A DNA stretch of 64,000 nucleotides from Promethearchaeota archaeon (GTDB lineage Archaea; Asgardarchaeota; Lokiarchaeia; Sigyniarchaeales; SOKP01), in assembly GCA_048938005.1 (NCBI GenBank), contig JBHLMQ010000006.1, positions 32,001 through 96,000 of the forward strand. Reading direction: 5' to 3'. The position numbers and the translations under genes were made by a program. Position 1 is the stretch's first letter, and every line of letters starts with the position of its first letter. This document shows, piece after piece, positions 3,634-43,022 of the stretch. The notes under the pieces were generated by a model that was not told the origin of the DNA, searched no databases, and saw only the letters and a list, made by a program, of their open reading frames with translations.

Positions 3634-4227
3634 TTAATATTCAGAAATTTGGTCTAAGGCTTCTAAAGCTACAGTTGCAACTAGATCAGATTTATCATGA
3701 AGTAAAGACTTTAAAGCAGTAATAACTTTAGGGTCTTCTGGGTTTATTTTTGCTAGAGCTTCAACTGCGCGCCACCTAACAACAGGATTCTTATCTTCTA
3801 ATGCCTTTATTAATGAAGAAACAGCTGAAGTAGCGGAGGAACCTAATTTCCCCAAAGAAAGGGCTGCTTCTCTTCGTATAATATATTTTGGATCAACTAG
3901 AGCATATTCTAAAGCTGAAATAGCTTCTTCTGAATTTATTCCTATTTTCCCTAAAGTTCTTACTATTTCAACACGATACTGATTTTTTAAATCCCATATA
4001 AAGTATATCCGGATTAAAAGACCAATAATAGCGATTATTAATCCTAATAGTATTATTGATGGCCCTATGATAAAATAATATACATAATGATATTTGGCTG
4101 GCCATGAATAGAAAGCAGCATGGTAAGGAAACAAGAGATATTCCAAAACTGCCGCAATAACCACAATTAAACTAACAATAGTAGTTTTATTTAAACTTCT
4201 CAATTTTAAACACCAATTTTTATTCAT
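3634..4227 (-). CDS. Membrane-anchored HEAT-repeat (PBS lyase-type) protein
   Basis: Two N-terminal TM helices then L.D....VR..A..AL repeats. Confidence 0.85.
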   Translation of the reverse strand: MNKNWCLKLRSLNKTTIVSLIVVIAAVLEYLLFPYHAAFYSWPAKYHYVYYFIIGPSIILLGLIIAIIGLLIRIYFIWDLKNQYRVEIVRTLGKIGINSEEAISALEYALVDPKYIIRREAALSLGKLGSSATSAVSSLIKALEDKNPVVRWRAVEALAKINPEDPKVITALKSLLHDKSDLVATVALEALDQISEY

Positions 4228-5281
4228 TCAATTTCTTTTTTAATAAATTAGATTTAGAGTACAAACGCTCTCTTCTATAATCAATATCTTCTTCTTTAGA
4301 TTTCAAGATTCTAATTAAAGTTGGGATAGCATCTTTAGCATCAGCACCAATTGCGCCTATAGCAGATATGATCAGTTTTTGAATATCCATATCAGAGCTT
4401 TCAAGTGCTTCCAATAAAGCTGATACAGATTCTTTACCAATATTACTAAGCGCATTAGCAGCTTTTCCACGAACACCTTCATCTTTATCATTAAGCATTG
4501 TTGCTAATTTTTTGATTATCATCGGATCTGGTATCTTTAATTCTCCAAGAGCTTCCAATACTCCTTTCCTAACTATTGGATTGTAGTGTTCCAAGTATGC
4601 TAAAAGGCTTGGAACAGCACCAATTCCAATTTGAGAAAGAGTAGATATTATTGCTTTTCGAACTCTCCAATCTTTATCACCAAGCGCTTTAAGTAATGAT
4701 GGAATAGCTTTTCGTGTTCCCTTCCCAATATCTGATAATGCGGTCACCGCTGCTGCTCTAACGGACCAATTTTGATCCTTTATACTATTTAATAAGTCTG
4801 AAATGGCTACATGAGCATCAGGACCAATTTTTCCAAGAGATTCTGCAGCTTCTTTTCGAACTGCCTCACTATCATCATTTAATCCTTTAATCAGGCTAAA
4901 AATAGCCTCTTCTGAAGGATATCCGATTTTTCCTAGTGCTATTGCCGTTTCTTTTCTAATTGATTCCTCTTCATTTTCTATTAATTTTGATAATTGCGCT
5001 ACCCCATTCTCCGCAATATTCCCCATCTTTCCAAGTGATCGGACTGCTTCACGGCATATACTCCAATCATTGTCTTCTAAACATTCTACTAACTTGAAGA
5101 GCGCAGAACTTGATTTTTCAGCTAATTCTCCTAAAGCATAAATTGCATTGAATTTGATAGACCTAATTTCACTATCTAAATGACCAATAATTTCTTCTAT
5201 AATTGTTGGATCTTTTTCAACTCTAGCAAGAACTAAATCTATTCTCGCATCTCTTAATAATTTTTCTAAAGGAGCAGACAC
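4220..5281 (-). CDS. HEAT-repeat (PBS lyase-type) protein
   Basis: About 9-10 repeats of ~31 aa, LxDxxxxVRxxAAxxLGxIG. Confidence 0.9.
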   Translation of the reverse strand: MSAPLEKLLRDARIDLVLARVEKDPTIIEEIIGHLDSEIRSIKFNAIYALGELAEKSSSALFKLVECLEDNDWSICREAVRSLGKMGNIAENGVAQLSKLIENEEESIRKETAIALGKIGYPSEEAIFSLIKGLNDDSEAVRKEAAESLGKIGPDAHVAISDLLNSIKDQNWSVRAAAVTALSDIGKGTRKAIPSLLKALGDKDWRVRKAIISTLSQIGIGAVPSLLAYLEHYNPIVRKGVLEALGELKIPDPMIIKKLATMLNDKDEGVRGKAANALSNIGKESVSALLEALESSDMDIQKLIISAIGAIGADAKDAIPTLIRILKSKEEDIDYRRERLYSKSNLLKKKLNE

Positions 5282-9077: not shown

Positions 9078-10610
9078 TTAATGTACACCAGGTAGCCACC
9101 AATGAGGAAACATTATTTCGTTGCTGTATGCTGTTTGGTTTAAGGGTATACCAAACTTTAGACCTATCGTGGGATATGTCACTGTGTCAAGAGGACCTTC
9201 TAAATTGGAAAAATAGCCAGGATGTCTTGTTTCATTTCCGTAATCCCATCCTGGAACGAGAGGACAAGTTTGATACATATATTGATTTGGATTCGAAAGA
9301 TTTAGAGGTTGCCACTGACGGAATTGATTTTCGCCCCATCCAACAGGCAGGCTTCCATTTTGAGGTAATATATCATGAGCTTCATCAAATCCTATAAATT
9401 GGTTAAGTCCTTGATATGGATTTGAGTAATCTAATTGCTCCAAAGCAAGAACAAGTTCATCACCATTTAAAATTTTATCCGCCGCTACCATTAAATCAAC
9501 AATTATATTAATACCATTAGCACCATTCCAGGTTGTATAGATTGGAGATTCTCCCCATTTTACGAAGTATTCCTCCAGAAAAGGTAATATATACGGAGTA
9601 CCATTGTTATATGAAAAACCATGGGAAGTAATTTCATACAATCCAGCATGTACTTTATAGCCAGCATTGTAAGTATATAATGGATATACGTCAAATTGTG
9701 CCATAACATTGATGCCTGCCACAAGAGCATTTGGGTGATAAAGACCGTAGCGTGCTCCGAAATTTGCTCCAACAGTTGGATCTGAGATTATTGGAACTAT
9801 TAAATGAGATTTGGATCCTGCTATGGTATACCACATTGTATCATAATCAAATGCGATTCCACCAGCAGGAATTTCTTTTAATATCATTGTAATACCTGGG
9901 TTTTTAGCTTGAACTGTTGCTATAAATTCATCTCTAACGTCTCCAACCCAAATAAGTTTCTCATATACAACTGTAATATTTTCAACTGGATATCCCATAT
10001 GGTTAGAAATGTTTCCTAAAAGTCTGTTATTTACATAATTTCCTATAATTACTCCCATTCTTTGATTATTAAGCGGACCCAACCGAAATGTATAATTATA
10101 TATTTCAGGCTGATTTTTCACTCTTACCCAACACCAATCTCTCGTTGCGGTACCGGTTATAAGAAAAGGAACGTGACCACCCATTGCTATAGTTTGGTAA
10201 TCCGAAAAAACTTCAGAACGGAAACCTCCCAGCATAGCATGAGGTGCATGTTCAATCATCGCATATGTAGCGGCCTCTGCTGTATCAAAATCATATGCTG
10301 CTTCTTTCGTATCTTCTGCCACCATGCCAACCCAATAGTTTACACCACCTATCTCTACACCACCACCTAAATTAATTCGGCGCGCTGCTATATACATTCC
10401 ACCCCAAGCTCCTTCACCGCTCCAACTCATATCATCGAGAAGTCCGAATTTAATCGTATTGCTCAATGGTTTTTTTGAGGGTTCAAGGCCTGGATATATA
10501 AAAGGATTTTCTGCTCCGGGAGCAAGGAAAAACCATGCTCCTACACCGATTCCCACGCCTATAACGGCAATAAGAACAATAGCTAGAATTCTTTTTGTTA
10601 AAGCTTCCAT
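9078..10610 (-). CDS. Liv-type ABC substrate-binding protein, N-terminal membrane anchor
   Basis: N-terminal TM, IKFGLL...IN..GGV...EDT...GGFRSE pattern; first gene of liv operon; ATG at 10610 preferred to GTG at 10622. Confidence 0.8.
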   Translation of the reverse strand: MEALTKRILAIVLIAVIGVGIGVGAWFFLAPGAENPFIYPGLEPSKKPLSNTIKFGLLDDMSWSGEGAWGGMYIAARRINLGGGVEIGGVNYWVGMVAEDTKEAAYDFDTAEAATYAMIEHAPHAMLGGFRSEVFSDYQTIAMGGHVPFLITGTATRDWCWVRVKNQPEIYNYTFRLGPLNNQRMGVIIGNYVNNRLLGNISNHMGYPVENITVVYEKLIWVGDVRDEFIATVQAKNPGITMILKEIPAGGIAFDYDTMWYTIAGSKSHLIVPIISDPTVGANFGARYGLYHPNALVAGINVMAQFDVYPLYTYNAGYKVHAGLYEITSHGFSYNNGTPYILPFLEEYFVKWGESPIYTTWNGANGINIIVDLMVAADKILNGDELVLALEQLDYSNPYQGLNQFIGFDEAHDILPQNGSLPVGWGENQFRQWQPLNLSNPNQYMYQTCPLVPGWDYGNETRHPGYFSNLEGPLDTVTYPTIGLKFGIPLNQTAYSNEIMFPHWWLPGVH

Positions 10611-10792
10611 AAAATAGATCACTTCTTATTTTATTTTTTTATATTTTTTATTTAAATTTAGATTTACAAGTACTATCTCATTTTAACATATATATAAAGT
10701 TTTCAACTTTTTATATCCAAAATCAGCATATATATATAAAAATTTGTAAAAACCATTCAAAAAAATGATCTACATTATTATTTAATTAATAC

Positions 10793-13700
10793 TTAGAAAA
10801 AATATATGTAATAAATCTGTAGAGCAAGCAATATTCCAAATAGAACAAGCAAAATAATTAAAATTATAAGGGTATAAAACCTCCACTTAATTGAAATATT
10901 TTCACGTTTTTCTTTAAAACTTATATAGGGTAACAAAATAGCCCCCATTATCCAAATTGATATCCAAATAGTGAAAATATACCAAACCCATGTTATAAAA
11001 GCAAACAAAAGAACAATAATGCTACCCCAGCTGATGATTAAACGCAACATTCTACGCCGAAACATTAAATCAGCATCTTCAGATTTTTTAGAAGGCATAA
11101 TAGAGTAAAGTATCCCAAAAATAGGAAAAACTAGTACTATTGAATGAACCAACCAGAGTGTAAGTATGTATGTAAGGATACCAAAAAATATTGATACAAA
11201 GAGGCTAAATATTATCCAAACATATTGAAAATTTTTCTTTAGGAAACTGACAATTTTAATAAATGTGTTCTTAATTAAGATTTTGACTTTTCTAAAGAAT
11301 ATTGTAAGATAATCAACTAATTTATTGAAGAGTTCTTTTAATTCTTCCAAAAGGAAAATAAATGGATAAACCATAACTGTAATGATAAAGATTGCTAATC
11401 CTGCAATCCAAGATAAAGAAATAAAATATATGATTATGCTTAATAAAACAAATATTATTACCCAAAAGGTGAGAGCTAAAATAGAATGTTCTTTAAAGGG
11501 TTTTATCTTTATTCCTAAGAACATTATAAAAACTAGAGAAGAGATACTTAAATTTAAAAAGATATTGAAATCTGGAATAAAATTCAATAATAAAAATACA
11601 TCAATAGATAATAGACCTCCAATTATTAGAAATGAGTAAGATCTCAAGGATTTTCGTAATGTTTCTTTTAGAACGCCTATGAAGTTATCGATATATGTAA
11701 GAATAAACATAATGAAAAGAGAGGCTAATGTTAAATTAAGGATGAGAAATGGATTTAAACTAGCAAAATATAATGGCCATGTCATGAAATTGAGATATGA
11801 CAAGCCAATTAGAGAAACTCTAATTTTCTCTTTGTTAGAAACAACTAATTGCCAAAAAAGTAATAATTTAAAAAGATAAGCGAACTCAAGGATTAAGATA
11901 AAAATGATTATAGGTATAACTGTTAATAAAAATGTAATAGAAAAAATATTATAAAGCCATATTAAATAAGTTGATGTAAATATCATAATTAAAATCCAAG
12001 ACATTACTTTTACATAACGAGTAGCTATTCCTAAAAACTTTAATAGATAACTATCTATAATCATTAATAGATGGATTAAAAGGCTTAAAATCAATAGTAT
12101 CAATGGGATTGGAAATCCCTGCAAAAATAATGCTTGGAATATTGAAATGGATAATGTAATGTAGAAACCCGTGCCTATTGTATGTTGAACATATGTTTGG
12201 ATTTTATTAAGAGCATCTTTGGTATTAGGGTAAAAATCCTTTAATGAGGCAAAAAGAGAATAATTAGTATAAAATTGCATTAGTATAAAAATAAAGATTT
12301 CCAAACTAAGCAGAAAAGGATATTGAGATATCAAATTGTTTAAAATTAGAAATAACATTAATGAAATTGTAAAAAAGCTGATAGTATGAACTAATGATGC
12401 ATAACTTCTCTTTACTTTCTTTATTGAATAAATATCTAACAATGTTAGTACAAATAATATTGATACAGATACCATTATACTTTCAATCAAATCAAAGCCT
12501 AAAAATTCACTAACCAAGCCATACATGATGATGCTTATTTCAAAATATAATATTAATAGCATGAATGAATTTATCTTCGGTAAAAAATTAGGATATTTTT
12601 GCTTATCTATCATAATATTAATGTATTTAATAGAATTGAATGAAAAGCATATCTCTATTAATATTATTAAATTAATCATGAAAAAGTTTAAATAATCTAA
12701 TATTGTGAAGATGTAAAAAAGACTTATAGCTAATAATCCTTGAAATAGGACGAAAAGAATAAATTCAATCCAATTTTTCAAACGTTTCTCAATTTTGACG
12801 AAAAAGAAACTTAGAGCATATAATAGAATAGTAGCGTTTTGAAATAACAAAGAATAGTAGGGAAAACCTTTTAATCCTTCAAAAAGTAGTATTAGTCCAT
12901 CAGAGATTAAAGAAGCTATATAAAAGGAACTCCATATAAATGAATTATAAATAAGGATTAAACGAGCTGTAGAGATCTTCTCTTTCGAAATATCTAAGTA
13001 AGATAAAAAATGGAGAAAAATAAGATTTAAAAGAGAGATTGTTAATACTAAAAGGAAAACATTTAAATGAAACAAATAAAGGAAAAGAGACAACGTATTG
13101 CTGAATATAAACCACGAACATACAATAAATTTATTTCGAGTTGAATTAAATAACAAATAGAAATAATTTCTATCCATTAAGTAACTCTCAATAAATGCTA
13201 TTCCACTAACTACTAATAAAAAAGAATAAATTGAAATTGCTAAATTGATAAAAACTAAATATAGAAGAAGATTTACAGCTAAAGCAAAAGGAATTAAAAG
13301 ATATAAAACAAAACTAATTTTATTGAAATAACGGAGTGGATTTTTTATTTTTATATCTAATTTTGATTTTTCAATATATTTTAAACAGAATAAGAATAAA
13401 AATGGCCAAATTATTAAAAAATCACAAATCTGGTAAACTATCAAAATTTGAGTAAATAGAAATAGCTTTAATAGATTTGGCAAAATAATTGCAATAAATA
13501 AGGAAATACAAATTGAGTTTAATAGAAAACCTGTAAGATTGAGCCATTTAACTTGATTCTCATCCTCAAAAAGCTTCAATATGCTATTTCTTTTTTCTGG
13601 TGTTTCAGCCTTCACTAAATTTTTAAATATATTAATTAAAATCTGAAAAGAAATGAGATAAAGTATCGCCCAAGTTAAAAACCATAAGGGTTGAATAAAC

Positions 13701-16700
13701 TCAAATATTAAGAGCAATTCTAAAATAAGTGTTGATATTGGAATTGGAATACCAAACCAGAGCATATATCGATATTCAGTGAATATAAAGTATAAGAAAA
13801 CGATAAACACTGAAGAAAACGTAGAAATTAAAATAGCAGGGGATGCTTTAAATATGATGGAAATTAAGGATGTCACTGAGAGGGATGCTCCAACTGCCAC
13901 TATTAAATACGGAATTATTTTATTAATACGGAATTTCATTTTATAACGATTAAATATGAAAAAGGAACATCCACCAACGGTTAATGCTAATGAAAAAGCA
14001 AACAATAATAAGCCCGGAAAAAAATTGAATGTGTTGAATGTCAACCATGAAAAATTAAAAATTAGAATCCAAGAGAGGCATAAATTTATTATTCTTTTGG
14101 GTAATTGTGTGTATTTAGAGGAAAAAAGACTGAATCCAATCACAATAAGACTAATGTTAACAGAAAAAATGGGATCCAAAATTATAGAATAAAGAACAAA
14201 GTAGATTGTTAAGAAAATTCCTAATAAAGTTATGAAATATGCACCTATTAAGATAATGCCAATTGATCTTATATTTGGGAAAAACGAATAAACAATCAAA
14301 AATAAGCCAATAACTAATATGTCAATAGAAATTGTAATTTCTGGTAAGATGCCGATTTCCATCAGATAAAATAACAAAAATCCAGCATTAATAACAGTTA
14401 ATGGGAATATCCATAAAATCGAAATAATTTTCCAATATTTAAATATTGCCAATAATGGCATTAATAAGATTGCTGAAAACAGACCAAAAGATAAATTTGT
14501 TAATAAAATGTCAGTCGGAAATAGATATTGACTTACCCAATATAATAAGAATAAGCTTTCACCCCAAATAATAAAAACAATTAGAGAAAAGTATTTCTTT
14601 ATTTTACTATACACTACTGGCAAGAAAAATAAGGAGCAAATTATAATTGATATTATTAGTGAGCCATCTACACTAAAGGCTCCGAATTGTAATGATTTAG
14701 TTAAAACATCTATTCCTGTGAAACTTTGATAAATAATATAAAAGTTAACAAAGGGAAGAATATTCCAAGCATACCACCCAGATTTCCAAATCGCCCAAGA
14801 TATTCTCCACTGGTAAATACCAATTGAAAGATAATATAAGAAAACTCCAAAATTAATTGCAACTATTAGAGGAACAACAGATAAAAGGGGCAAATCCAAG
14901 GATGCGATGATAAGAAAGTATAAAAAGGTTGGAAAAGAGAGCACAATTGATATAAGCACGATATAAAAGGATATCTTTCTAAATCGTACTGGTGAATTAT
15001 TATATAGAAGAACAAATCCAAAACCAGTTATACTCATTGTTAGTGTAAAAGTTAGAATAGGATTATATAATCCAAAAATCAGATTGTTAAAAAACCAAGA
15101 ATATGACATAAAGCTAGTAATGTCAAAGATAGCTAAAACCACACATGGTCTAATAAACCATTTATAACGCTCATCTTTTAGACGATAGAAGAAAAATCCT
15201 ATGAATAATAAAAAAATTAGAATTGAGATTGTTATGTTATAGATAATGAGGATATTAGTAAACGTAATTAGAGAGACAAAAGACAAGAGAGAAATGAGAA
15301 AATATAATGCAAATTTCTCTAAATTGTTATTTTTTTTAATGTTTATTAAAATCGAGAAAAATAAAGCCCAACTCATAGTTAAGAGGGATATAATGACGAG
15401 AATACTAAATCCCAATATGACACTATACATGCTTAAAATCGCTAGAACTTCAATAAATGTTATGTAGCTTAGTAGAAAATACGATACAAATCGAAAAATG
15501 GGGATTATACTCCTTTGAGAAAGAATTAGCGCATATGATATTAATGTAAGAAAAATTGTAAGAATTGAGTTAAAGTAAAGAAGACTTACTAGTAATAACA
15601 CTGATGGTATATAAAATTGGTATAAAGTAAAAACAGATCTTTCTTCTACAGTTTTGTTAAATCTTAAAAAGGAATAATATAGAAATAAAATTACATTAAC
15701 CGTAATAACTGTTATCTGTAATAAAAGATTCTGATTAAAGAAAGGGATGATAGCTGTTAGATTGTATAAAATTTCTAAATATATGCTTAATATTGAAATT
15801 ATAAATGTTATTAATGTTATTTTCTTCATTAAGAGTTGATTTTTGGCGGAAATATACTTTAAATTCCTTAGAATGTAAAGACTCAGAGGAGTTAAAAGAA
15901 TAAAAGTTAATGAAAACAAAAATATTTTATTTACAATGAAGAATTGGGGAATATAGAATTCAATTAGAGAAAGTGTTAAAGTGCACAAGATTATCTTAAT
16001 AACCAACCATGCTGTTAACTCTAAAATAATCTTTAACTGCGTTAATTTAAATTCTATCAGATTATCAAAAACAATCACAAACAAAAGAAATATTGTTAGA
16101 AAAAACCCTATTAACATCGATATGTAAAATACCAAATTAGGTAAGATAAACGCAAATAAATTAGTTGAGAGAATCAAAAATGTAAAAGTAAATGATATAG
16201 AAACAACTATTCCATAAACGATTATATCATGTAAATAATTAAATATCTTTAATTCCGGAAAATAATCAGATGATAACTTTAGTGTATACATACTTAAAAC
16301 AAAAAACATAAATAAAGAACAACTTATTATTAAAAGGGTAAAAGGGTTTAGCGTTATTGTTACGATAAAGATTGATGCTACATAATAAGATAAAAGCACT
16401 GTAAATAAAAACCAAGAAATAATTCCAGATAATTTGAAGCGTTTAATATAACTCTCTTTTAATTTAATTCTTACACTTAATAATTCAGAAATCTTTAAAA
16501 AACTAAATAAAAGGAATATTGTTGTAGTTAATATGAGAATTATATTTAATTTTAATCCAAATCTCGTTAAATCTAAACTAATAATTGTTGGTAAAGAAAT
16601 AATCAAACAAGATAAGACAATAAAGTCATAAATCGTTAATTTTTTAATCCATTCTAAATTAAAATATTCTTTTTTATATGAATAATAGAAAAGGAAAAGC

Positions 16701-19327
16701 CACGAAAATAGTAATAAGATTAACGGTAAGATTATACCATAAAAAGTCCCTATTAATAAGAAAAAGGGATAATAAAATATCGTTGTTGCACTTATACAAA
16801 ATGCTATGATTATTTGTAATTTCAGAAAAAATCTTACTCTATTCTCCCTAATTTTGACTTTCTTAGATATATAAAAGATACTTGTAAAAATTAAAAATAC
16901 GATATATAGCGTACAATTTATTACAGTTATTATCAAAAAGATTATATCAAAATATAAATTCAAATAGAATAATTCCAATCCTATAATAGTTGGAATTAAT
17001 GATATCGTGGTTGATAATAATATACTATTTATGATAAGAGATTTAGATATAAATTTATGGTATAATCTTTTCTTTCTTAAATATAATATTGGAAGGTAAA
17101 GAATTATACTCGAAACTAACAGTGGAACTATTAAAACATAAAGAGTACCAATTGTTAACAATAAAAAATAGTAGAATACTATCACGGTTGTATATAGCAG
17201 AATAAAACTGTTTATCTTTATATAAAGACCTTCAGAAAAGATCTCTTTTTTTGAAAAGATGTTGATTATTCCACAAACTAATGCCAATGATAAATATGTT
17301 GAATAAATTATGTTCTGAACTAGCGAAACCACTTGAAAGACTTGAAAGACACTCAAAAATAATAAGCAAAATACAGAAAAAAGTTCCACTGCTAATAAGT
17401 AAGAATTGATTTTAACATATTTTTTAAATTTAGATTCGGTTATTCTTTCCAATTTCAAACCAAACTTTAATATAAAATAATAAAAAATAGACGTAAAAAG
17501 GCAATCTAACGCTATTATAATAAAGTATGTAGTAAATAGGGATATTATTAACAGAGATATAAAAAAATCAAATAAAAATATCCAAAGTGAAAAATAGCAG
17601 AATTTCAAGAAATCTTTTAGGGGATACACATGTAAGCCATAATTTAAGTAAAGAAAAAATATGAAAACAATAGGAAATAAAACTGATGATATCAATATTC
17701 CTTGTAGAAAAGGAATTAGTTCAATCAAGAAATAGGTTCTAAATAATATAAAAGCAATAACAAATAATTCGACTAAAAAGCTATTAAATAATACAAAGAT
17801 CCTGAATAATTTCGGGGATTTTCTGTAGAAGTATCTCACACCTAAAACATACTGAGAGATTAAAAAAATTATTGAAATTATTAATGAGTGTAAGAGAACA
17901 TTTGAAATGAAAATTAATAATGGGTTTGATGTAAAAGTTGTTGGAAAGAAATAATACATAATCATTGGAAAGAAATAATACATAACCAAAGAAAAACTAG
18001 CAACGGCTAGCAAATTTTGAAAGATTAGAATGTTATCTTTAAGGAAATAATCTAATTTAACAAACACTTGCAAAACCAAATACAAAGAAATGCAAAATAC
18101 CAAAAAATTCAATAAGATGGTCTCTATTGTAGGTAGTATTATTCCAAAAGAGATGTAAATCAAGAGAGCAATAGAGTTTAATAAAATTACATATTTATTA
18201 TACTTCTTTGAACATAGTTCATACTTCTGTTCATAGTGAAGTAGTATATAAATAAATGGAAGGATAATTAAGATTAAGTATGGAATTTGGATTAGAAAAG
18301 AGAACAATGTAATTAATAGAATTAAAATTCCAGATAAATATGAATTGTATTTTTGATATTTAATATTTAGTGGGGGAGGACTTTCCTTAGACTCTTCAAT
18401 TTTATCAGACTTGTCATATAGATCAAGTTTAGAACCATAATAATAATTAACATAGAACCTAGATTTAAAATAGAATAAAATGAATATCAGTGTTAAGAAA
18501 GAGCTATTTAGGAGTTCTGCTAAGAGATTAAATGTTATAACAATAACTAATGGCATTTGAACTAATATAAAGAAAATAAGGCTAACTAAGGAAATTACAA
18601 AATTTTTTTTAAATAATATTAAGTCTCTTAAAAATGGTTTATTTTTAATTATGGAATCTTTTATTCTTTTTATTTGACTCTTAGTACCTGTTAATGTGAT
18701 GATATAAAATAGTAAGTTTGTTATAAGAGCATAAAGCCAGGAGAAATTAGTGGAAGCAGTAAAAGCTAAAAAAATAATATGAGTAACATAATTAACGAAA
18801 ATTAAGAAATTATATGGCTGCTTAACCATTAATGCAAAATTTTCGCTATGTTTGAATTCTCCATCTTCTATATTAAAAAAATCAATTGGTTGGAAATAAT
18901 AATAGTAGTAAACAATGTTGAAAAGAACTGCATAACTAATTAATGGAAGGAAAATAAATGAATCAAATGGTGAACCAAGTATAAAAATAGGAGTTGTAAC
19001 AAATGAAAGGATAGAAATTAAAAAAAGGACATGAATTCTAGCAGTAAGATTATTCCTTTTGTTAAGAAAAAAGGGATTATTTCTGTATTTATCATAAGCC
19101 TTATAGAAAAAAAGCAAAGTAAACACAAAACATTCTACTGATAAAGATAATGTAATGAATAGACCAACTCGAGAAAAATTTAGGATTAAAAAAAGTACAA
19201 CTGCTGCTATTAAAGGAGCAATAATTAAATAAAATGAAAACCACCAAAATTTCTGAAGTAGTTCCGTAGCCTTCGTTATTCTTTCTTTTGAATTATCGGT
19301 AGTTTTTGATCTCATCGCCCAACACAA
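10793..19327 (-). CDS. Giant polytopic membrane protein of unknown function (2844 aa)
   Basis: Uninterrupted 8.5-kb ORF of hydrophobic helices separated by short Lys-rich loops; likely start ATG 19315. Confidence 0.85.
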   Translation of the reverse strand: MCWAMRSKTTDNSKERITKATELLQKFWWFSFYLIIAPLIAAVVLFLILNFSRVGLFITLSLSVECFVFTLLFFYKAYDKYRNNPFFLNKRNNLTARIHVLFLISILSFVTTPIFILGSPFDSFIFLPLISYAVLFNIVYYYYYFQPIDFFNIEDGEFKHSENFALMVKQPYNFLIFVNYVTHIIFLAFTASTNFSWLYALITNLLFYIITLTGTKSQIKRIKDSIIKNKPFLRDLILFKKNFVISLVSLIFFILVQMPLVIVITFNLLAELLNSSFLTLIFILFYFKSRFYVNYYYGSKLDLYDKSDKIEESKESPPPLNIKYQKYNSYLSGILILLITLFSFLIQIPYLILIILPFIYILLHYEQKYELCSKKYNKYVILLNSIALLIYISFGIILPTIETILLNFLVFCISLYLVLQVFVKLDYFLKDNILIFQNLLAVASFSLVMYYFFPMIMYYFFPTTFTSNPLLIFISNVLLHSLIISIIFLISQYVLGVRYFYRKSPKLFRIFVLFNSFLVELFVIAFILFRTYFLIELIPFLQGILISSVLFPIVFIFFLYLNYGLHVYPLKDFLKFCYFSLWIFLFDFFISLLIISLFTTYFIIIALDCLFTSIFYYFILKFGLKLERITESKFKKYVKINSYLLAVELFSVFCLLFLSVFQVFQVVSLVQNIIYSTYLSLALVCGIINIFSKKEIFSEGLYIKINSFILLYTTVIVFYYFLLLTIGTLYVLIVPLLVSSIILYLPILYLRKKRLYHKFISKSLIINSILLSTTISLIPTIIGLELFYLNLYFDIIFLIITVINCTLYIVFLIFTSIFYISKKVKIRENRVRFFLKLQIIIAFCISATTIFYYPFFLLIGTFYGIILPLILLLFSWLFLFYYSYKKEYFNLEWIKKLTIYDFIVLSCLIISLPTIISLDLTRFGLKLNIILILTTTIFLLFSFLKISELLSVRIKLKESYIKRFKLSGIISWFLFTVLLSYYVASIFIVTITLNPFTLLIISCSLFMFFVLSMYTLKLSSDYFPELKIFNYLHDIIVYGIVVSISFTFTFLILSTNLFAFILPNLVFYISMLIGFFLTIFLLFVIVFDNLIEFKLTQLKIILELTAWLVIKIILCTLTLSLIEFYIPQFFIVNKIFLFSLTFILLTPLSLYILRNLKYISAKNQLLMKKITLITFIISILSIYLEILYNLTAIIPFFNQNLLLQITVITVNVILFLYYSFLRFNKTVEERSVFTLYQFYIPSVLLLVSLLYFNSILTIFLTLISYALILSQRSIIPIFRFVSYFLLSYITFIEVLAILSMYSVILGFSILVIISLLTMSWALFFSILINIKKNNNLEKFALYFLISLLSFVSLITFTNILIIYNITISILIFLLFIGFFFYRLKDERYKWFIRPCVVLAIFDITSFMSYSWFFNNLIFGLYNPILTFTLTMSITGFGFVLLYNNSPVRFRKISFYIVLISIVLSFPTFLYFLIIASLDLPLLSVVPLIVAINFGVFLYYLSIGIYQWRISWAIWKSGWYAWNILPFVNFYIIYQSFTGIDVLTKSLQFGAFSVDGSLIISIIICSLFFLPVVYSKIKKYFSLIVFIIWGESLFLLYWVSQYLFPTDILLTNLSFGLFSAILLMPLLAIFKYWKIISILWIFPLTVINAGFLLFYLMEIGILPEITISIDILVIGLFLIVYSFFPNIRSIGIILIGAYFITLLGIFLTIYFVLYSIILDPIFSVNISLIVIGFSLFSSKYTQLPKRIINLCLSWILIFNFSWLTFNTFNFFPGLLLFAFSLALTVGGCSFFIFNRYKMKFRINKIIPYLIVAVGASLSVTSLISIIFKASPAILISTFSSVFIVFLYFIFTEYRYMLWFGIPIPISTLILELLLIFEFIQPLWFLTWAILYLISFQILINIFKNLVKAETPEKRNSILKLFEDENQVKWLNLTGFLLNSICISLFIAIILPNLLKLFLFTQILIVYQICDFLIIWPFLFLFCLKYIEKSKLDIKIKNPLRYFNKISFVLYLLIPFALAVNLLLYLVFINLAISIYSFLLVVSGIAFIESYLMDRNYFYLLFNSTRNKFIVCSWFIFSNTLSLFLYLFHLNVFLLVLTISLLNLIFLHFLSYLDISKEKISTARLILIYNSFIWSSFYIASLISDGLILLFEGLKGFPYYSLLFQNATILLYALSFFFVKIEKRLKNWIEFILFVLFQGLLAISLFYIFTILDYLNFFMINLIILIEICFSFNSIKYINIMIDKQKYPNFLPKINSFMLLILYFEISIIMYGLVSEFLGFDLIESIMVSVSILFVLTLLDIYSIKKVKRSYASLVHTISFFTISLMLFLILNNLISQYPFLLSLEIFIFILMQFYTNYSLFASLKDFYPNTKDALNKIQTYVQHTIGTGFYITLSISIFQALFLQGFPIPLILLILSLLIHLLMIIDSYLLKFLGIATRYVKVMSWILIMIFTSTYLIWLYNIFSITFLLTVIPIIIFILILEFAYLFKLLLFWQLVVSNKEKIRVSLIGLSYLNFMTWPLYFASLNPFLILNLTLASLFIMFILTYIDNFIGVLKETLRKSLRSYSFLIIGGLLSIDVFLLLNFIPDFNIFLNLSISSLVFIMFLGIKIKPFKEHSILALTFWVIIFVLLSIIIYFISLSWIAGLAIFIITVMVYPFIFLLEELKELFNKLVDYLTIFFRKVKILIKNTFIKIVSFLKKNFQYVWIIFSLFVSIFFGILTYILTLWLVHSIVLVFPIFGILYSIMPSKKSEDADLMFRRRMLRLIISWGSIIVLLFAFITWVWYIFTIWISIWIMGAILLPYISFKEKRENISIKWRFYTLIILIILLVLFGILLALQIYYIYFF

Positions 19328-19508
19328 TTTTTTAATTGTATCTTGAGAGTAATGAAAATATGTGTTTATAAATATATTATAAGTATGTTTACTAGTTTGT
19401 TAGAGTATTTAAAGATTAATTCGAACTTTTACCAGTAAAAGTCGAGAAAATAGTAGTAAAACTTTTATTTTGGTGGTAGAAATTAGCGAATGTAAAAAAA
19501 CTGGTGGA

Positions 19509-20840
19509 TTATTTGAAATTAGGTAAATAACTTTTTTGTTGTTCAAACATTTCATTATAGATGTTTTCTGCCATTTCAAAACTCCCAACATTCGGATCAA
19601 TTGCTAAACAAGCAACAGCGATATCTTTAGATCTTTTTAAAACTGCTTCAACACACAAATCTTGGATTGACGCTTCAATGCGAAGTAACGCAGCAATATT
19701 TTTAGGTAAAGGACCTATATTAACACCATGAGCACCCTCCTTATTTATTACTGCAGAACACTCAATTATTGAATCTTGCGGCAAATTTTCAATAAGATTA
19801 TTGTTTGGAATATTAACAGCAAATTCATAGGAATTCTCATCATTAATGATTGCTTCTATTATTGGGATCGCTCTTTCTCCAGACAGTTCTTTTGATAAGA
19901 TTCCTTTTCTAGGATATCTTCCTCTTTTAAGCCTTTTATAATAATTACGGAATCTCTCATATATCATTTGTCCTTCATTGTCTATAAAATCAATCCAATC
20001 TATCATATCCTGGGTTTCTGTAAATTCCTCCCCAAATTGTAAGTATTCTCCAATATGATTATCCCCTACATATGGAAAATACCCAAATCTCTTATAAATT
20101 TCAAATGTAAGTGTAGAAAACTCGAATCTATCCTCATGTTCTTTGAAATATTTCATGGCATTAGTATTAAATGAAGGCATTAAATTCTTTCCTGTTAGTA
20201 AATCCTCCAAGCCTAATAAAAATGCAAAATGATTAAAACCTGCTACTTTCATTTTTAACTCTCTTATCGATTTTTTAAACATTTTAGGCAAATGTCTGAC
20301 CATAAACTCGATTTGATGACATAAACCAATAAACTTTAACTTTTTTACACTTCTTTTAATTGCTAAGCATACTCGAGATAATGGATTTGAAAAGTTGATG
20401 AAAAAAGCATTTGGACAAATTTTTTCGGCCTCTTTAACAATCTCAATAATTGGGGGAATTATTCTCCAAGCATGAAAAGTACCACCGGATCCTCCGCACT
20501 CCCCTAAAATCTGTGTTGACCCATATTTTCTTGGTATTTCATAGTCTTGTCGCCATAATTCCATTCGATTTCCAACTTCTATTGAATTAATTATGAAATC
20601 GGCGTTTTTAAGAGCTGTAGTTCTATCAATCGTTCTTTCTAGATTGAATTTATTATTTATTCTATCGTTTTCTACCATTAATAACTCATAAATCATTTCT
20701 AACTTCTCTTTATTAGTATCATGAAGTACTATTGTTGAACCTTCTAACACATCACTTAAATAAATATCATTAAACATTGGAGGTCCAAACGAAGTTGAAC
20801 CTGCTCCAATCAATACAATTTTCTTATTCATGTCGCTCAC
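19509..20840 (-). CDS. melA: Glycoside hydrolase family 4 (NAD+/Mn-dependent, alpha-galactosidase-like)
   Basis: IGAGSTSF, GECGGSGG, NFSNP, GLCH, AGFNH, GERAIPII. Confidence 0.85.
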   Translation of the reverse strand: MSDMNKKIVLIGAGSTSFGPPMFNDIYLSDVLEGSTIVLHDTNKEKLEMIYELLMVENDRINNKFNLERTIDRTTALKNADFIINSIEVGNRMELWRQDYEIPRKYGSTQILGECGGSGGTFHAWRIIPPIIEIVKEAEKICPNAFFINFSNPLSRVCLAIKRSVKKLKFIGLCHQIEFMVRHLPKMFKKSIRELKMKVAGFNHFAFLLGLEDLLTGKNLMPSFNTNAMKYFKEHEDRFEFSTLTFEIYKRFGYFPYVGDNHIGEYLQFGEEFTETQDMIDWIDFIDNEGQMIYERFRNYYKRLKRGRYPRKGILSKELSGERAIPIIEAIINDENSYEFAVNIPNNNLIENLPQDSIIECSAVINKEGAHGVNIGPLPKNIAALLRIEASIQDLCVEAVLKRSKDIAVACLAIDPNVGSFEMAENIYNEMFEQQKSYLPNFK

Positions 20841-20902
20841 AAACTAGTTTATTGGCAAATGATTTAATAATTTACTTATAAGTATAATTCAACAAATTCC
20901 GA

Positions 20903-20932
20903 TAAATGGGAAGTAAATGGGAAAGTTTATAA
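20903..20932 (+). promoter_or_regulatory. TAAATGGGAA direct repeat x2 followed by BRE/TATA (GAAAG-TTTATAA)
   Basis: Repeats near 20903 and 20914; TTTATAA at 20926-20932, about 20-25 nt before the structured region. Confidence 0.5.
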
Positions 20933-20950
20933 GGTTATTCTAACTTTTCC

Positions 20951-21181
20951 TAATTAATGAGTTTTTCACAGTATACTATGGATTATTGGTGTAAGATACA
21001 TATTACAGTATTACCTTTAATCCGTGGTATTAAGAGAGAATAAATCAAAAAATTTTGACCTCTTTCTTATAACTTTTACTGATTTGTTCTCTTTTATACT
21101 GCATCTCAATAATTATTATATGAAATAGGTCGTAATTAGATTGATCCTCCCAGTGAAGAATTCAATTAAAAATGGAGGTGA
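20951..21181 (+). ncRNA. Putative structured RNA / cis-regulatory 5' leader
   Basis: Stems 20973-20985/21018-21030 and 21032-21047/21080-21095 (two G-U pairs each), closing stems 20969-72/21098-101 and 20951-61/21105-15, loop pairing 21056-72/21116-32, anti-SD 21146-50. Confidence 0.6.
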
Positions 21182-21187
21182 AGTGTA

Positions 21188-21367
21188 CTGGAAAAAGAAT
21201 CAGATAAAATTGATCTGATATTAGATTATTATAAAGATTGGGATTCTTATAATGCTCCAGTTATGATGATGTTTAATGCGCCAAATGAGCTTTCAGAAAG
21301 TTTAGAGGCGGAGGATAGCAAAAAGTTGGAGTATTTAAGGAAAAAGTATCAAAATTCTTCGAAATGA
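21188..21367 (+). CDS. 59-aa small protein, probable CTG start
   Basis: GGAGGTGA at 21174-21181, 6 nt before CTG; reads (M)EKESDKIDLILDYYKDWDSYNAPVMMMFNAPNELSESLEAEDSKKLEYLRKKYQNSSK*; T-rich tract downstream. Confidence 0.65.
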   Translation: MEKESDKIDLILDYYKDWDSYNAPVMMMFNAPNELSESLEAEDSKKLEYLRKKYQNSSK

Positions 21368-21423
21368 TGACAATCTTTTTAGTTTTTATAATATAACTCT
21401 TTTTTTTTTATTTTTGTTATATT

Positions 21424-22599
21424 TTAAGTAAATAATGTTTCAATTCTTTCTAATGCTTGCCTAATCCGTTCTTCGGGTTGTGTTAAAGCAAATCTCACAA
21501 ATCCCTCTCCATATTGACCAAAACCTATTCCAGGTGTGATTATTACTCCTATATCAATTAATTTCTTTACAAAATCCATGCAGCTCATTTCACAGTACTT
21601 CTCTGGAATTTTAGTCCATACATAAAATGTTGCTTGAGGTTTGTCTGTTGTCCACCCTATATCATTTAAACCTTTAATTAGAATATCTCTCCGCTTCTCG
21701 TAAGTTTTTACTGTGCTTTCGACAACTTCTGGTTTTTTTTCTGATTTATATTCATTTAAACCTTTAATTACAGCTTTTTGTATAAAAATCGGACAACCCG
21801 AGTCGATCTGAGATTTGATCTTTCTTAACCCTTTTATAATATCTCTATTTCCTGCCACCCAACCACATCGGAATCCTGTCATATTGAACATTTTGGATGC
21901 ACTGTTAATCTCAATATGGTTTTGATCTATTTGTAATATGGATGGAGCAATATAATTACCAAATGTAAACTCTGAATAAGGATTATCATAAACAATAAAA
22001 AAATCATAATCCTCAGCATAATCCACTGCTTTTTTCAAGAATTCTTTTGGCATTATAGCACCAGTAGGATTATTTGGATAATTCAAATACATTAATTTAG
22101 CTTTTTTAAGAATTTTTTTATCAATTATATCTAAATCAGGCAAAAAATTATTTTCTTTCAATAAAGGCATTGAATATGGATTTGCATCACACAATTTTGT
22201 TGCTCCATTCTCATAAACTGGATATCCCGGATTAGGACAAAGAACTATATCTTCTGGATTAATAAAGGCTCTTGCAATATTCGCAACACCCTCCTTTCCT
22301 CCAATTACATTTGAAATCTCATCTTGAGGATCTAATTCCAGTTTAAATCTTACTTTATACCATCTTGCTACAGCTTCCCTAAAATCTTGTTCTCCCATAC
22401 TAGCAGGATAATTTTGATTCTCTGGAATTCTAACTTGCCTTATCATCTCGTTAATTATCAATTCTGGGGTAGTTAAATCAGGATCTCCAATCCCTAAAGG
22501 AATTAAATCAATCCGTTTTTTTCTTTTTTCTTCTAATAATTGCTCTATCTCTACAAAAATATATGTTGGGAGCCTTTTTACCCTCTCAGCATAATTCAT
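21424..22599 (-). CDS. Class I/II PLP aminotransferase, LL-diaminopimelate aminotransferase-like
   Basis: LGIGDPD, LNYPNNPTG, DNPYSE, SASKMFNMTGFRCG, GFGQYGEGFVRFAL. Confidence 0.88.
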   Translation of the reverse strand: MNYAERVKRLPTYIFVEIEQLLEEKRKKRIDLIPLGIGDPDLTTPELIINEMIRQVRIPENQNYPASMGEQDFREAVARWYKVRFKLELDPQDEISNVIGGKEGVANIARAFINPEDIVLCPNPGYPVYENGATKLCDANPYSMPLLKENNFLPDLDIIDKKILKKAKLMYLNYPNNPTGAIMPKEFLKKAVDYAEDYDFFIVYDNPYSEFTFGNYIAPSILQIDQNHIEINSASKMFNMTGFRCGWVAGNRDIIKGLRKIKSQIDSGCPIFIQKAVIKGLNEYKSEKKPEVVESTVKTYEKRRDILIKGLNDIGWTTDKPQATFYVWTKIPEKYCEMSCMDFVKKLIDIGVIITPGIGFGQYGEGFVRFALTQPEERIRQALERIETLFT

Positions 22600-40115: not shown

Positions 40116-43022
40116 TTGCCAAGTCCAAAAAAGAAAAAATCAGATGATAAGGCTCAGAAATCACTCTTTTCTTTCGTTAGTGAAAAAGAAGAGGGAAAAG
40201 AAAAGCTGAAAGAAATGATTAAGGAAAGAAAAACAGAAGAAATAGAAGAAGAGAAGAAAATTAAGGAAAAGGCACATAGAGTAGTGGAAATTACAAAAGA
40301 GGTTCCTGCTCCCTTGTCTTTTAGAGGAGATGATAAACCATTTGGCTTAAAAGAGGGGAATATCAAGTTAGCCAAGGTACTGCGCGAAAATGTTTCTTCA
40401 AAATATATTCGTTACCTAATTGAAAAAGATGAAATTGTTGAAAATATAGAGAGAGGGTTTTTACTTGATGTAGATTATGACGGTGGACAAAATAAAGCAT
40501 ACTGTAAATTTTATGATTTAGATTCTGATGATATAAAGATTTGGATCGATACCACTGATCATGAGCCTTATTGTTTAAGTAAAGAACCTATTTCAGAATT
40601 AGAAAAACTATATTATACTGAAAAAACGGGACAGAAAACAAAACTGACTGATTATCAAGGATTTAATCGGTTTGAAGAAATAAAGCGGTTTGATTTGTTA
40701 GATGATCAAGAGATTGACATGATTAAGATTTATGGTAAAACACCAACGAATATTGGAGGCTCTGGAATAAATATACGTAATATTTTAGGAAACAATGAAA
40801 AAAAAGCTTGGGAAGCTGATATTCGGTATCACCTTAATTATATATTTGATAGGCAATTAATTCCAGGTTTAATTTATAAAATTGAAAACGGTAAGCTTGA
40901 AAAATTATCTTTTGAGAAAATTGATGAAAATTCGAAAAAAATGGCTAATGAGCTTCGAGAATTATTTAAAAATGAAACTCCAGAAATTCAAGAATTTTCT
41001 GAGGAATTTTTAGATATTTTTATAACTCCAATCCCAGAAGTTAAACGTTTAGCTATGGACATTGAAGTTATGGTCGGCGAAAGAGATTATAAAATCCCTG
41101 ATCCCCATTTAGCTAAGCAAGAAGTTATTAGCGTTTCATTTGTAGCGACAGATGGATTAAAATTAGTTTATATGCTTGAACGAGAAGGATATACATTCGA
41201 AAAAATGCATAAGAAATTCCCTTCTGACGCTAAAATTATGTTCTTCAAATCAGAGAAAGAGTTATTAATAGAAACTTTTCGCCTTATATGGGAGTATCCT
41301 ATAGTTATTACTTTTAATGGAGATAATTTTGACTTAAATTATTTATACCATAGAGCTGAAAAATTAAAAATCGAAAAGGATCTAAATCCTATTCATGTAA
41401 AAAGAGGTTTTGGGATTCTATCTAAAGCTGAATGTGATTTAAGAAAAGGAATACATATTGACTTATTTAATCTATTTTTCAATAGAAGTATTTCTGGTTA
41501 CGCATTTAGTGGCGCTTATGAGAGTGCCTCTCTTAATGCTATTAGTGCTGCCTTATTAGGAGAAGAAAAATTTAAGCATGATGAGATAATTCATGAAATG
41601 GAATATGATATTCTTTCTTGGTATAATCTTAAAGATTCTATATTAACCTTAGAATTAACAAAATTTAACAATTCACTAGTATGGAATCTAATCATTTTAT
41701 TATGCCGAATAACCAAGATGCCTATTCATGATATGGTTCGGAGGCAAATTTCAACATGGATTCAAAATATCTTTTATTTTGAACATAGGAGAAAAAAAGC
41801 TCTAATTCCTCGTCGATCAGAAATAAAGGAGTCAAAACCAGGAGGAATCCTGTCCTCTAAATTTGATGACGAAAAATTTTTAGGAGCTTACGTAGTAGAT
41901 CCGGTCCCAGGGATTCACTACGATGTAGTTGTTATGGATTTTGCAAGCCTATATCCTTCTATTATAAAAGAATATAATTTATCATACGAAACAGTCTTAT
42001 GCCCTCATAAAGATGATGAAGATAACCTTGTAAAAGGTACTCCTTATCACATATGTACTCATAAAATGGGAATCTTTGCATATGTTGTAGGTTTTTTTAG
42101 AGATATAAGAGTAAAATACTTTAAACCGAAATCAGGAGATAAAAATTTAACCGAAAAGCAAAGAAATTATTATCAAACAATCCAACAAGCTCTCAAAGTA
42201 TTCATCAACGGCTCGTATGGCGTTTTTGGATCCCAGAATTTCCCTTTATTTTGTTTACCTGTAGCAGAAAGCACTACAGGAATAGGACAATATTCTATTA
42301 AACAAACTATCAATAAGGCTGAACAATTGGGAGTAGAAGTATTATATGGTGATACAGATTCCGTTTTTCTGAAAAATCCTACAAAAGATCAAATGAAAGA
42401 AATTTCTGATTGGAGTAAAAAAGAACTTGATCTTGATTTGGAAGAGGAAAAAACATATCAATTCTTAGCCCTCTCTGAGAGAAAAAAGAATTATGTTGGG
42501 ATTTATAAGGATACTAAATATACAGATATAAAAGGTTTAGTAGCTAAAAAGAAAAATACTCCTGAATTTATTAAGACCGTATTTAGCGAAATGATTGAGA
42601 TATTGAAAAATATTACTAACAATGATGAATTTTTGAAAGCTAAGGATAAAATTATAGAAATTGTAAGAGATAACCTAAAGAAAATAGGAAAACCAGATAC
42701 TTTTACTTTAGAAGATTATGCGATCAATATTGCTATACAAAAGAACCTTAGAAGTTACACTAAAGTCGTTCCACAGCATGTGAGAGCAGCACTAGAAATA
42801 CGAGATGTAACAGGAAAAGAATATCAGAAAGGGGAAACAATAAGTTTTATCAAAAGTAAGGGGGCGATCGGAGCAAAAGCAATCGAATTAGCCAAACTCC
42901 AAGATGTTGATACCAAAAAATATAAGGAACTTTTAATATCCGCTTTAGAACAAGTGCTAGATGCACTCGGTATTACATTTGATGAAATTAAGGGTATTAA
43001 AAAGATGGATGCTTTTTTTTAA
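40116..43022 (+). CDS. polB: Family B DNA polymerase, PolB1-like
   Basis: DIEV, FNGDNFD, YNLKD exonuclease motifs; DFASLYPS, KVFINGSYG, YGDTDS, KKNY. Confidence 0.96.
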   Translation: MPSPKKKKSDDKAQKSLFSFVSEKEEGKEKLKEMIKERKTEEIEEEKKIKEKAHRVVEITKEVPAPLSFRGDDKPFGLKEGNIKLAKVLRENVSSKYIRYLIEKDEIVENIERGFLLDVDYDGGQNKAYCKFYDLDSDDIKIWIDTTDHEPYCLSKEPISELEKLYYTEKTGQKTKLTDYQGFNRFEEIKRFDLLDDQEIDMIKIYGKTPTNIGGSGINIRNILGNNEKKAWEADIRYHLNYIFDRQLIPGLIYKIENGKLEKLSFEKIDENSKKMANELRELFKNETPEIQEFSEEFLDIFITPIPEVKRLAMDIEVMVGERDYKIPDPHLAKQEVISVSFVATDGLKLVYMLEREGYTFEKMHKKFPSDAKIMFFKSEKELLIETFRLIWEYPIVITFNGDNFDLNYLYHRAEKLKIEKDLNPIHVKRGFGILSKAECDLRKGIHIDLFNLFFNRSISGYAFSGAYESASLNAISAALLGEEKFKHDEIIHEMEYDILSWYNLKDSILTLELTKFNNSLVWNLIILLCRITKMPIHDMVRRQISTWIQNIFYFEHRRKKALIPRRSEIKESKPGGILSSKFDDEKFLGAYVVDPVPGIHYDVVVMDFASLYPSIIKEYNLSYETVLCPHKDDEDNLVKGTPYHICTHKMGIFAYVVGFFRDIRVKYFKPKSGDKNLTEKQRNYYQTIQQALKVFINGSYGVFGSQNFPLFCLPVAESTTGIGQYSIKQTINKAEQLGVEVLYGDTDSVFLKNPTKDQMKEISDWSKKELDLDLEEEKTYQFLALSERKKNYVGIYKDTKYTDIKGLVAKKKNTPEFIKTVFSEMIEILKNITNNDEFLKAKDKIIEIVRDNLKKIGKPDTFTLEDYAINIAIQKNLRSYTKVVPQHVRAALEIRDVTGKEYQKGETISFIKSKGAIGAKAIELAKLQDVDTKKYKELLISALEQVLDALGITFDEIKGIKKMDAFF

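Follow-up and report, generated by a model that had tools for sequence, protein, structure and literature searches.

A giant polytopic membrane protein of Asgard archaea that may represent a new kind of in-membrane scaffold

Overview

The giant gene described here lies on a stretch of 64,000 nucleotides (the window) from a Promethearchaeota archaeon (GenBank assembly GCA_048938005.1, contig JBHLMQ010000006.1, positions 32,001 to 96,000 of the forward strand) and encodes a protein that is estimated to cross the membrane some 86 times and that, judging from its sequence and from structural models, could be an in-membrane scaffold of a new kind. Within the window the gene occupies 10793..19327 on the minus strand as a single open reading frame (ORF) of 2844 aa with a TTG start. 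An independently found database protein (P0002) is 100% identical to it and has 2840 aa, so that the true start is probably the residue-5 ATG (nt 19315), which would give this 2840-aa form. The gene is a genuine, conserved protein-coding gene and is present in a single copy in the genome of the window (3.72 Mb, 95% complete). It belongs to an orphan family that is confined to one Asgard order plus one match elsewhere in the class, and the protein has no relative of known function that we could detect by sequence or fold searches.

Membrane helices and hairpin periodicity

Leucine, isoleucine, phenylalanine and valine account for 51.7% of the residues (18.2, 15.9, 12.3 and 5.3%, respectively), and lysine, arginine, aspartate and glutamate together for 11%. 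A preliminary description of the window, made from the sequence by eye, had noted the lack of any sizeable soluble domain and roughly 80 or more transmembrane (TM) segments, and both observations hold. With a semi-Markov caller of our own, no non-TM stretch exceeds 51 aa, and at a penalty of 4 the protein receives 86 TM segments, distributed as 8 in aa 1–333, 69 in aa 334–2529 and 9 in aa 2530–2844. The caller returns 78–90 segments at penalties of 2–5, 69–79 at 6, 54–61 at 7 and fewer above, and 58 segments pass a strict cut-off of dG<0 on the Hessa scale. We estimate the total at about 86, with a range of 76–90.

Two AlphaFold2 (AF2) models, each built on 47 aligned rows of in-frame sequence from the fetched genomes, cover most of the chain. 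The model of aa 334–1330 (mb678165c3b78) has a predicted local distance difference test (pLDDT) value of 85.0, a predicted template modelling (pTM) score of 0.49 and 32 long helices, and that of aa 1330–2529 a pLDDT of 79.1, a pTM of 0.51 and 38 long helices, where a long helix is about 15 residues or more, counted by hand with kinked helices merged. The resulting 70 helices compare with 69 segments from the caller at penalty 4 over the same region. Both models are locally confident and, apart from one small beta-hairpin, all-helical, with a few short helices besides the long ones.

The loops follow a regular pattern, where counts of lysine and arginine alternate between high and zero along long runs of the chain. 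When averaged over the family, the K/R profile displays 49 peaks, a median of 59 aa apart, which correspond to ~45 distinct loops. In autocorrelations of hydropathy, polarity and K/R density across the family a period of 63–66 aa stands out, with multiples out to a lag of ~390 (r of about 0.5 as far as ~380). By region, the fundamental period is one of 66–68 aa in the N-terminal arm, where the 130–133-aa harmonic is stronger than the fundamental, of 55–58 aa in the core, and of 61–63 aa in the C-terminal arm, which in addition exhibits periods of 125 and 253 aa and harmonics with r of about 0.5 out to lags of 377–394. The K/R-rich loops, which return every ~60–66 aa, and the periodicity fit a chain of ~43–44 helical hairpins anchored on the inside, each of which would comprise two helices of ~25–30 aa joined by an outer turn of 2–8 aa, with successive hairpins linked by a K/R-rich cytoplasmic loop of 10–25 aa. 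Membrane proteins are oriented by the positive-inside rule, and applying this rule to the K/R-rich loops places the N-terminus inside.

Conserved core and flanking arms

The chain begins with an N-terminal module (aa 1–333; 18329..19327, minus strand, as are all features of the gene), which contains ~8 TM segments, 8 being called at penalty 4, and ends in a 46-aa low-complexity linker. This module is absent from about one third of the homologues (aa 1–300 have an occupancy of ~0.62 in an alignment of 95 sequences) and carries deletions of ~220–300 aa at several loci. The N arm follows (aa 334–1329; 15341..18328), where the AF2 model and the periodicity indicate that 32 long helices succeed one another as hairpins; homologues vary in the length of this stretch from 849 to 1667 aa.

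The conserved core (aa 1330–1905; 13613..15340) comprises ~20 helices and is rich in invariant Trp, Pro, Gly and Phe residues. It is ~575 aa long and always lies between two long arms, and matches to the core profile span positions 1–581 in family members. Conservation in the 95-sequence alignment is best at aa ~1350–1800, and aa 800–850 are occupied in only one third of the sequences. Among 60 complete ORFs, the most distant family included, 188 positions are at least 80% identical and 90 of these fall within aa 1330–1905; F, L, S, Y, W, G and P predominate among the 188. The core invariants include W1514, W1521, P1525, N1528, S1556, P1570, W1588, W1597, P1624, W1632, W1639, P1684 and Y1697. 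A Trp-rich island that the preliminary description had picked out maps to aa 1501–1521 (14765..14827), where it forms a predicted interfacial amphipathic helix (model helix H182-192) that carries the first two of these invariant residues. Next come a broken helix, marked by the invariant P1525 and N1528, and then the longest outward loop of the protein with its small beta-hairpin (14660..14764). Within this loop, which the parity of the K/R-rich loops would place outside the membrane, D1540 is 82% conserved and S1556 is invariant.

The C arm (aa 1928–2660; 11348..13546) is a second row of hairpins, with conserved mid-membrane residues E2263, E2481, Q2351/N2355 and H2419; the AF2 model ends within it at aa 2529. 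Beyond the arm lies a conserved amphipathic helix of predicted cytoplasmic location (aa 2661–2701; 11225..11347), with hydrophobic moments (muH) of 0.61 and 0.50 and a 93% conserved E2661. The stretch aa 2665–2682, with the muH of 0.61, ranks third among all 18-aa windows of the protein and matches the amphipathic helix reported near the C-terminus in the preliminary description. The C-terminal cap (aa 2702–2844; 10796..11224) contributes the last ~5 TM segments and a cytoplasmic loop with the invariant residues E2806 and R2816.

Internal repeats and turnover of four-helix units

A 133-aa internal repeat of about four helices per unit had been recognized in the preliminary description and is real. 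Copy 1 (aa 702–834; 16826..17224) and copy 2 (aa 835–967; 16427..16825) each contain four AF2 helices and score 133.5 and 144.5 bits, respectively, with a hidden Markov model (HMM) of the unit. A self-BLAST of the whole protein returned the identity match only and was replaced by a windowed search with a reversed-sequence control, in which aa 701–825 and 835–957 align with 52.8 bits and 32.5% identity; no other windowed self-match exceeds the 45.4 bits reached by reversed sequences. The other single-sequence self-matches are composition noise (at E<=0.01, and with the 133-aa pair set apart, 169 real matches against 327 in the control). Compared as family profiles, the two copies score 137 (P 99%), against a reversed-profile maximum of 33.4, and their offset continues with a score of 61 between aa 777–876 and 911–1006.

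A second pair of repeats is located in the C arm, where repeat A (aa 1976–2141; 12905..13402) aligns with repeat B (aa 2227–2400; 12128..12649) with an hhalign score of 70 (P 95.5%; control maximum 33.4) and an identity of 22% in a global alignment. Marginal hhalign matches within the C arm (34–37), at offsets that are multiples of ~125, barely exceed the same control maximum. We also considered whether the whole protein consists of diverged 133-aa units, which is not established, as the unit HMM gives negative scores elsewhere in the protein, no better than those of reversed sequences.

The number of units differs between homologues, which carry one, two or four tandem copies as detected by the unit HMM. 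Relative to the query, homologues are longer by 126–134 or 246–261 aa, or shorter by 111 aa, at aa ~800, and longer by 249–252 aa at aa ~2200–2340. In one database homologue with four units (P0101), the adjacent copies at aa 827–955 and 955–1083 are 91% identical, which indicates that this tandem duplication is very recent. The two copies of the query are 33% identical, and each resembles more closely the copy at the corresponding position in other proteins. These comparisons indicate that the N-arm array gains and loses whole four-helix units, recently in some lineages.

Distribution of the family

A query with the core matches 117 of 400 genomes of the phylum. Within the order of the window's genome the matches comprise 101 of 134 genomes in family f1, the single genome of f2, 11 of 14 in f3 and 2 of 4 in f4, and in a different order of the same class one of three genomes of f5 is matched; these per-family counts leave out genome G000. 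The core query has no match in any other family among the 400 genomes, and some well-assembled genera of f1 also lack one (g7, 0 of 2; g10, 0 of 1). In genus g11 of f1, 8 of 10 genomes are without a match. Database homologues of the full-length class number 116, all of them Asgard where a source is named.

From the matching genomes we fetched 60 loci, picked for large open frames, one of which (L109) was left out on account of masked bases. All 59 usable loci bear a single uninterrupted ORF of 2538–4920 aa, and smaller open frames among the matches seem mostly to begin at contig ends. The invariant core, the two hairpin arms beside it and an ORF longer than 2500 aa define the family, and they occur in combination. 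The homologues that we ran through the caller have 73–124 TM segments. The largest versions (3151–4920 aa) occur in f3, which includes single-contig genomes. One of these (G138) encodes two paralogues of 4920 and 3151 aa (L099 and L100), and almost all other genomes have one copy. A small soluble module, N-terminal or internal, may be present in some members of the family; a 2675-aa homologue (P0111) is named 'zinc ribbon domain-containing protein' at its source, and its longest non-TM stretch is 97 aa.

Search for known relatives

The whole protein matches no family of Pfam-A or NCBIfam at E<=1, and 24 core sequences compared with Pfam at E<=10 gave isolated single matches, none of them relevant. 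Two relatives of 4905 and 4356 aa, compared with Pfam in search of an extra domain, gave no match. The core profile has no match among PDB sequences at E<=10, and an hmmsearch with it against 1.84 billion representative proteins returned 62 matches at E<=1e-3, most of them giant and the short ones covering part of the core; from their lengths and core matches we judge these to be members or fragments of the same family. Our literature search found no description of the giant family, although the supplementary tables of Asgard genome and proteome studies might list it. Three outcomes that the preliminary description had named as counting against its proposal were far fewer helices, a match to a characterized family and homologues split into several small genes; we find instead ~86 TM segments, no characterized family and, at the 59 loci chosen for large frames, single giant ORFs.

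Structure-based searches gave a similar picture. Foldseek finds no PDB match at E<=1e-3 for either AF2 model, and the top non-significant rows for both are soluble TPR/HEAT solenoids (8q9t_E, E 3.3e-3; 4buj_B, E 1.8e-2). VIA fold comparisons produced non-significant or generic helical matches only. Piezo chains are absent from the listed Foldseek and VIA rows, and the models exceed the size at which single-domain detection is reliable. A feature search of the ESM Atlas returned unnamed clusters at 0.90, and the nearest Pfam-bearing cluster, at 0.83, was DUF2339 (PF10101), which likewise consists of large repetitive polytopic proteins of unassigned function. We rejected this candidate: a value of 0.83 lies in the stated chance range of the tool, and PF10101 has no match in the window's genome at E<=10 in a search that did find the family in four control genomes.

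The soluble alpha-solenoids (TPR/HEAT; for example Ski3, IFT-A, Ctr9 and mTOR) resemble the giant protein in that many helical hairpins are stacked one after another, in variable number. In contrast to them, the giant protein has hydrophobic helices of TM length, positive-inside loops and a period of ~63 aa rather than 34–40, and it has no TPR or HEAT match in Pfam. Superposition on such solenoids is poor, with a TM-score of about 0.1 and, for Ski3, a root mean square deviation of 22–34 Å.

A possible in-membrane ribbon

We suggest, at slightly less than an even chance, that this single-copy giant polytopic protein acts as a structural scaffold whose hairpins stack as a ribbon in the plane of the membrane. 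We infer both the ribbon geometry and the scaffold function from sequence and models. With its N-terminus inside, the chain would cross the membrane ~86 times as ~43–44 hairpins, passing from an optional N-terminal module through the N arm, the ~575-aa core and the C arm to the amphipathic helix and cap. The arms, built in part of four-helix units (~125–133 aa) that are changed by tandem duplication and deletion, would set hairpins side by side to give a long, narrow ribbon, for which our own estimate of about 1 nm per hairpin suggests a length of the order of 40 nm, the number of units setting this length. Such a ribbon could scaffold, stiffen, bend or partition the membrane; its cationic loops and amphipathic helix may hold on to cytoplasmic partners or the inner leaflet, with the invariant core as a possible specific site of interaction or gating. 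We favour a scaffold because the arms tolerate the gain and loss of whole units, because the conservation is of a structural type, and because there is no transporter or enzyme signature.

Several observations weigh against this interpretation. The TM count of ~86 comes from a caller that is not a validated predictor and varies with the penalty chosen, and the regular period may simply be what loops of uniformly small size produce. Homology between repeats can be demonstrated only for the 133-aa unit and one C-arm pair. The core is the least confident part of the models, with pLDDT values of 46–73 at aa ~1500–1600, and the pTM scores of 0.49–0.51 do not tell a flat ribbon from an arc, a ring or a compact bundle. 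Of the in-membrane solenoid envisaged in the preliminary description, the periodic row of TM hairpins with gain and loss of whole units stands, whereas a three-dimensional solenoid geometry, at a pTM of only 0.5, and a role in shaping, scaffolding or sensing the membrane are conjectural. Lastly, the conserved mid-membrane residues, which besides those of the C arm include E648, Q437, Q1895 and N1528, would suit ion or substrate handling equally well or better. Indeed, with these conserved Glu, Asn and His residues inside the membrane, and with the broken helix, channel and transporter readings stay in contention.

One of these, which we consider improbable, is a mechanosensor or channel that has converged on Piezo, with the arms as levers or curvature sensors and the core forming or gating a pore, possibly as an oligomer. 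Piezo forms a homotrimeric propeller and has 38 TM helices, with nine 4-TM units, an extracellular cap (CED) and a C-terminal pore module, and Piezo1/2 share with the giant protein a very large polytopic chain, membrane arms of repeated four-helix units and a distinct conserved module outside the repeats. The two differ in several ways: there is no sequence relationship, and no Piezo family of Pfam is matched at E<=1; one chain has ~86 rather than 38 helices; a longest non-TM stretch of 51 aa leaves no large extracellular cap; the conserved module lies in mid-chain (aa 1330–1905) and not at the C-terminus; the units are pairs of hairpins with minimal loops; and the family belongs to one archaeal order. 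Piezo, invoked in the preliminary description as an analogy only, is still useful as such.

Similarly improbable, in our assessment, is a machine that translocates ions or substrates through chained modules, in the manner of the complex I membrane arm or Mrp, or a lipid-handling protein, where the mid-membrane Glu, Gln/Asn and His residues would line a polar pathway. The membrane arm of complex I has many TM helices in one plane, some of them broken, a long amphipathic helix and acidic residues within the membrane, and the giant protein would share with complex I and Mrp subunits of the NuoL/M/N type an elongated in-plane chain of TM helices, in addition to a broken helix, conserved intramembrane acidic residues and an amphipathic helix. 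It differs from them in being one polypeptide, in the variable number of its modules, in its lack of homology to PF00361 or any transporter family, and in having no conserved mid-membrane Lys, and fold searches yield only noise-level structural likeness. Conserved polar residues are few in the arms, and variation of whole four-helix units among close relatives would be unusual for a coupled transport pathway.

A cell-envelope or secretion platform, which would anchor surface structures, the cytoskeleton or a secretion apparatus in the way of EccD, a large polytopic platform protein, seems to us quite improbable. No secretion, S-layer or cytoskeleton genes adjoin the giant gene within the window, the outward loops of 2–8 aa, with one exception, offer little for anchoring on the outside, and conserved synteny may reflect genome relatedness only. 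Finally, a chance or decaying ORF without function, for which the extreme AT-rich composition (GC 0.23–0.27 over the gene compared with 0.29–0.34 in the flanks) and the absence of a family match might speak, is refuted by conservation, with intact giant ORFs at 59 other loci whose arms and core are 17–72% identical, invariant residues in the alignments and the identical database record; nor can 8.5 kb without a stop arise by chance at this composition, for which we estimate a probability of ~1e-111 from the base composition (~2844 codons at ~26% GC).

Returning to the scaffold, a bolder version, which we regard as rather unlikely, is that a ~40-nm ribbon or closed arc of ~43 TM hairpins is a true element of a membrane skeleton, with which an Asgard order builds or stiffens its membrane and protrusions or senses their curvature, its length being tuned by four-helix units and reaching 100–125 helices in the versions of f3. 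In the order that comprises f1–f4, single-contig genomes included, the gene is near-universal, single-copy and strongly conserved, and yet it has neither a name nor a Pfam model. If this bolder version is true, the family would constitute a membrane-shaping class without bacterial or eukaryotic counterpart and with more TM helices in one chain than are known from any other protein; among characterized proteins, the record is usually given as the 38 helices of Piezo. Asgard archaea are studied for the rise of membrane complexity before eukaryotes, and a lineage-specific giant in-membrane repeat protein is a clear candidate to account for their unusual membrane architecture. It also raises the question of how 86 helices are inserted and folded without insertion machinery of the eukaryotic type.

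Genomic surroundings

Upstream of the giant gene lie genes for a GH4-family glycosidase (19509..20840, minus strand; assigned by Pfam), an aminotransferase and an MFS transporter, and downstream an operon for a branched-chain-type ABC transporter with one binding protein, two permeases and two ATPases. The order aminotransferase, GH4, giant gene (window positions 19509–22599, minus strand) is kept across genera (loci L051–L107). The GH4 gene, a conserved neighbour, adjoins the giant gene in 35 of the 60 loci, with 64–81% identity, the aminotransferase is nearby in 29 and the solute-binding protein in 19, all of the latter in one genus; none of the three was seen at the loci of f3. This neighbourhood is too likely to stem from common descent of the genomes to serve as a clue to function, and we claim no functional link with GH4.

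The AT skew within window positions 10001–20000 rises to 0.12–0.21 over the giant gene relative to its flanks, alongside the drop in GC, and the coding strand is T-rich; such an AT/GC footprint of coding sequence rich in F, I, L and Y could pass for foreign DNA. Among the sequencing runs listed as containing this DNA, which come from sediment and mangrove metagenomes, none is of RNA.

Elsewhere in the window, a 353-aa protein composed entirely of HEAT repeats (4220–5281, minus strand; HEAT_2, E 1.6e-62) is encoded directly 3' of the pair of ATPase genes in the branched-chain-type ABC operon. A 534-aa protein (53071–54675, minus strand) has a weak PHP-domain match as its sole match, a radical-SAM protein (44577–46313, minus strand) has a zinc ribbon of the HMPTM type at its N-terminus, and a DNA polymerase of family B (968 aa) is encoded at 40116–43022 on the plus strand.

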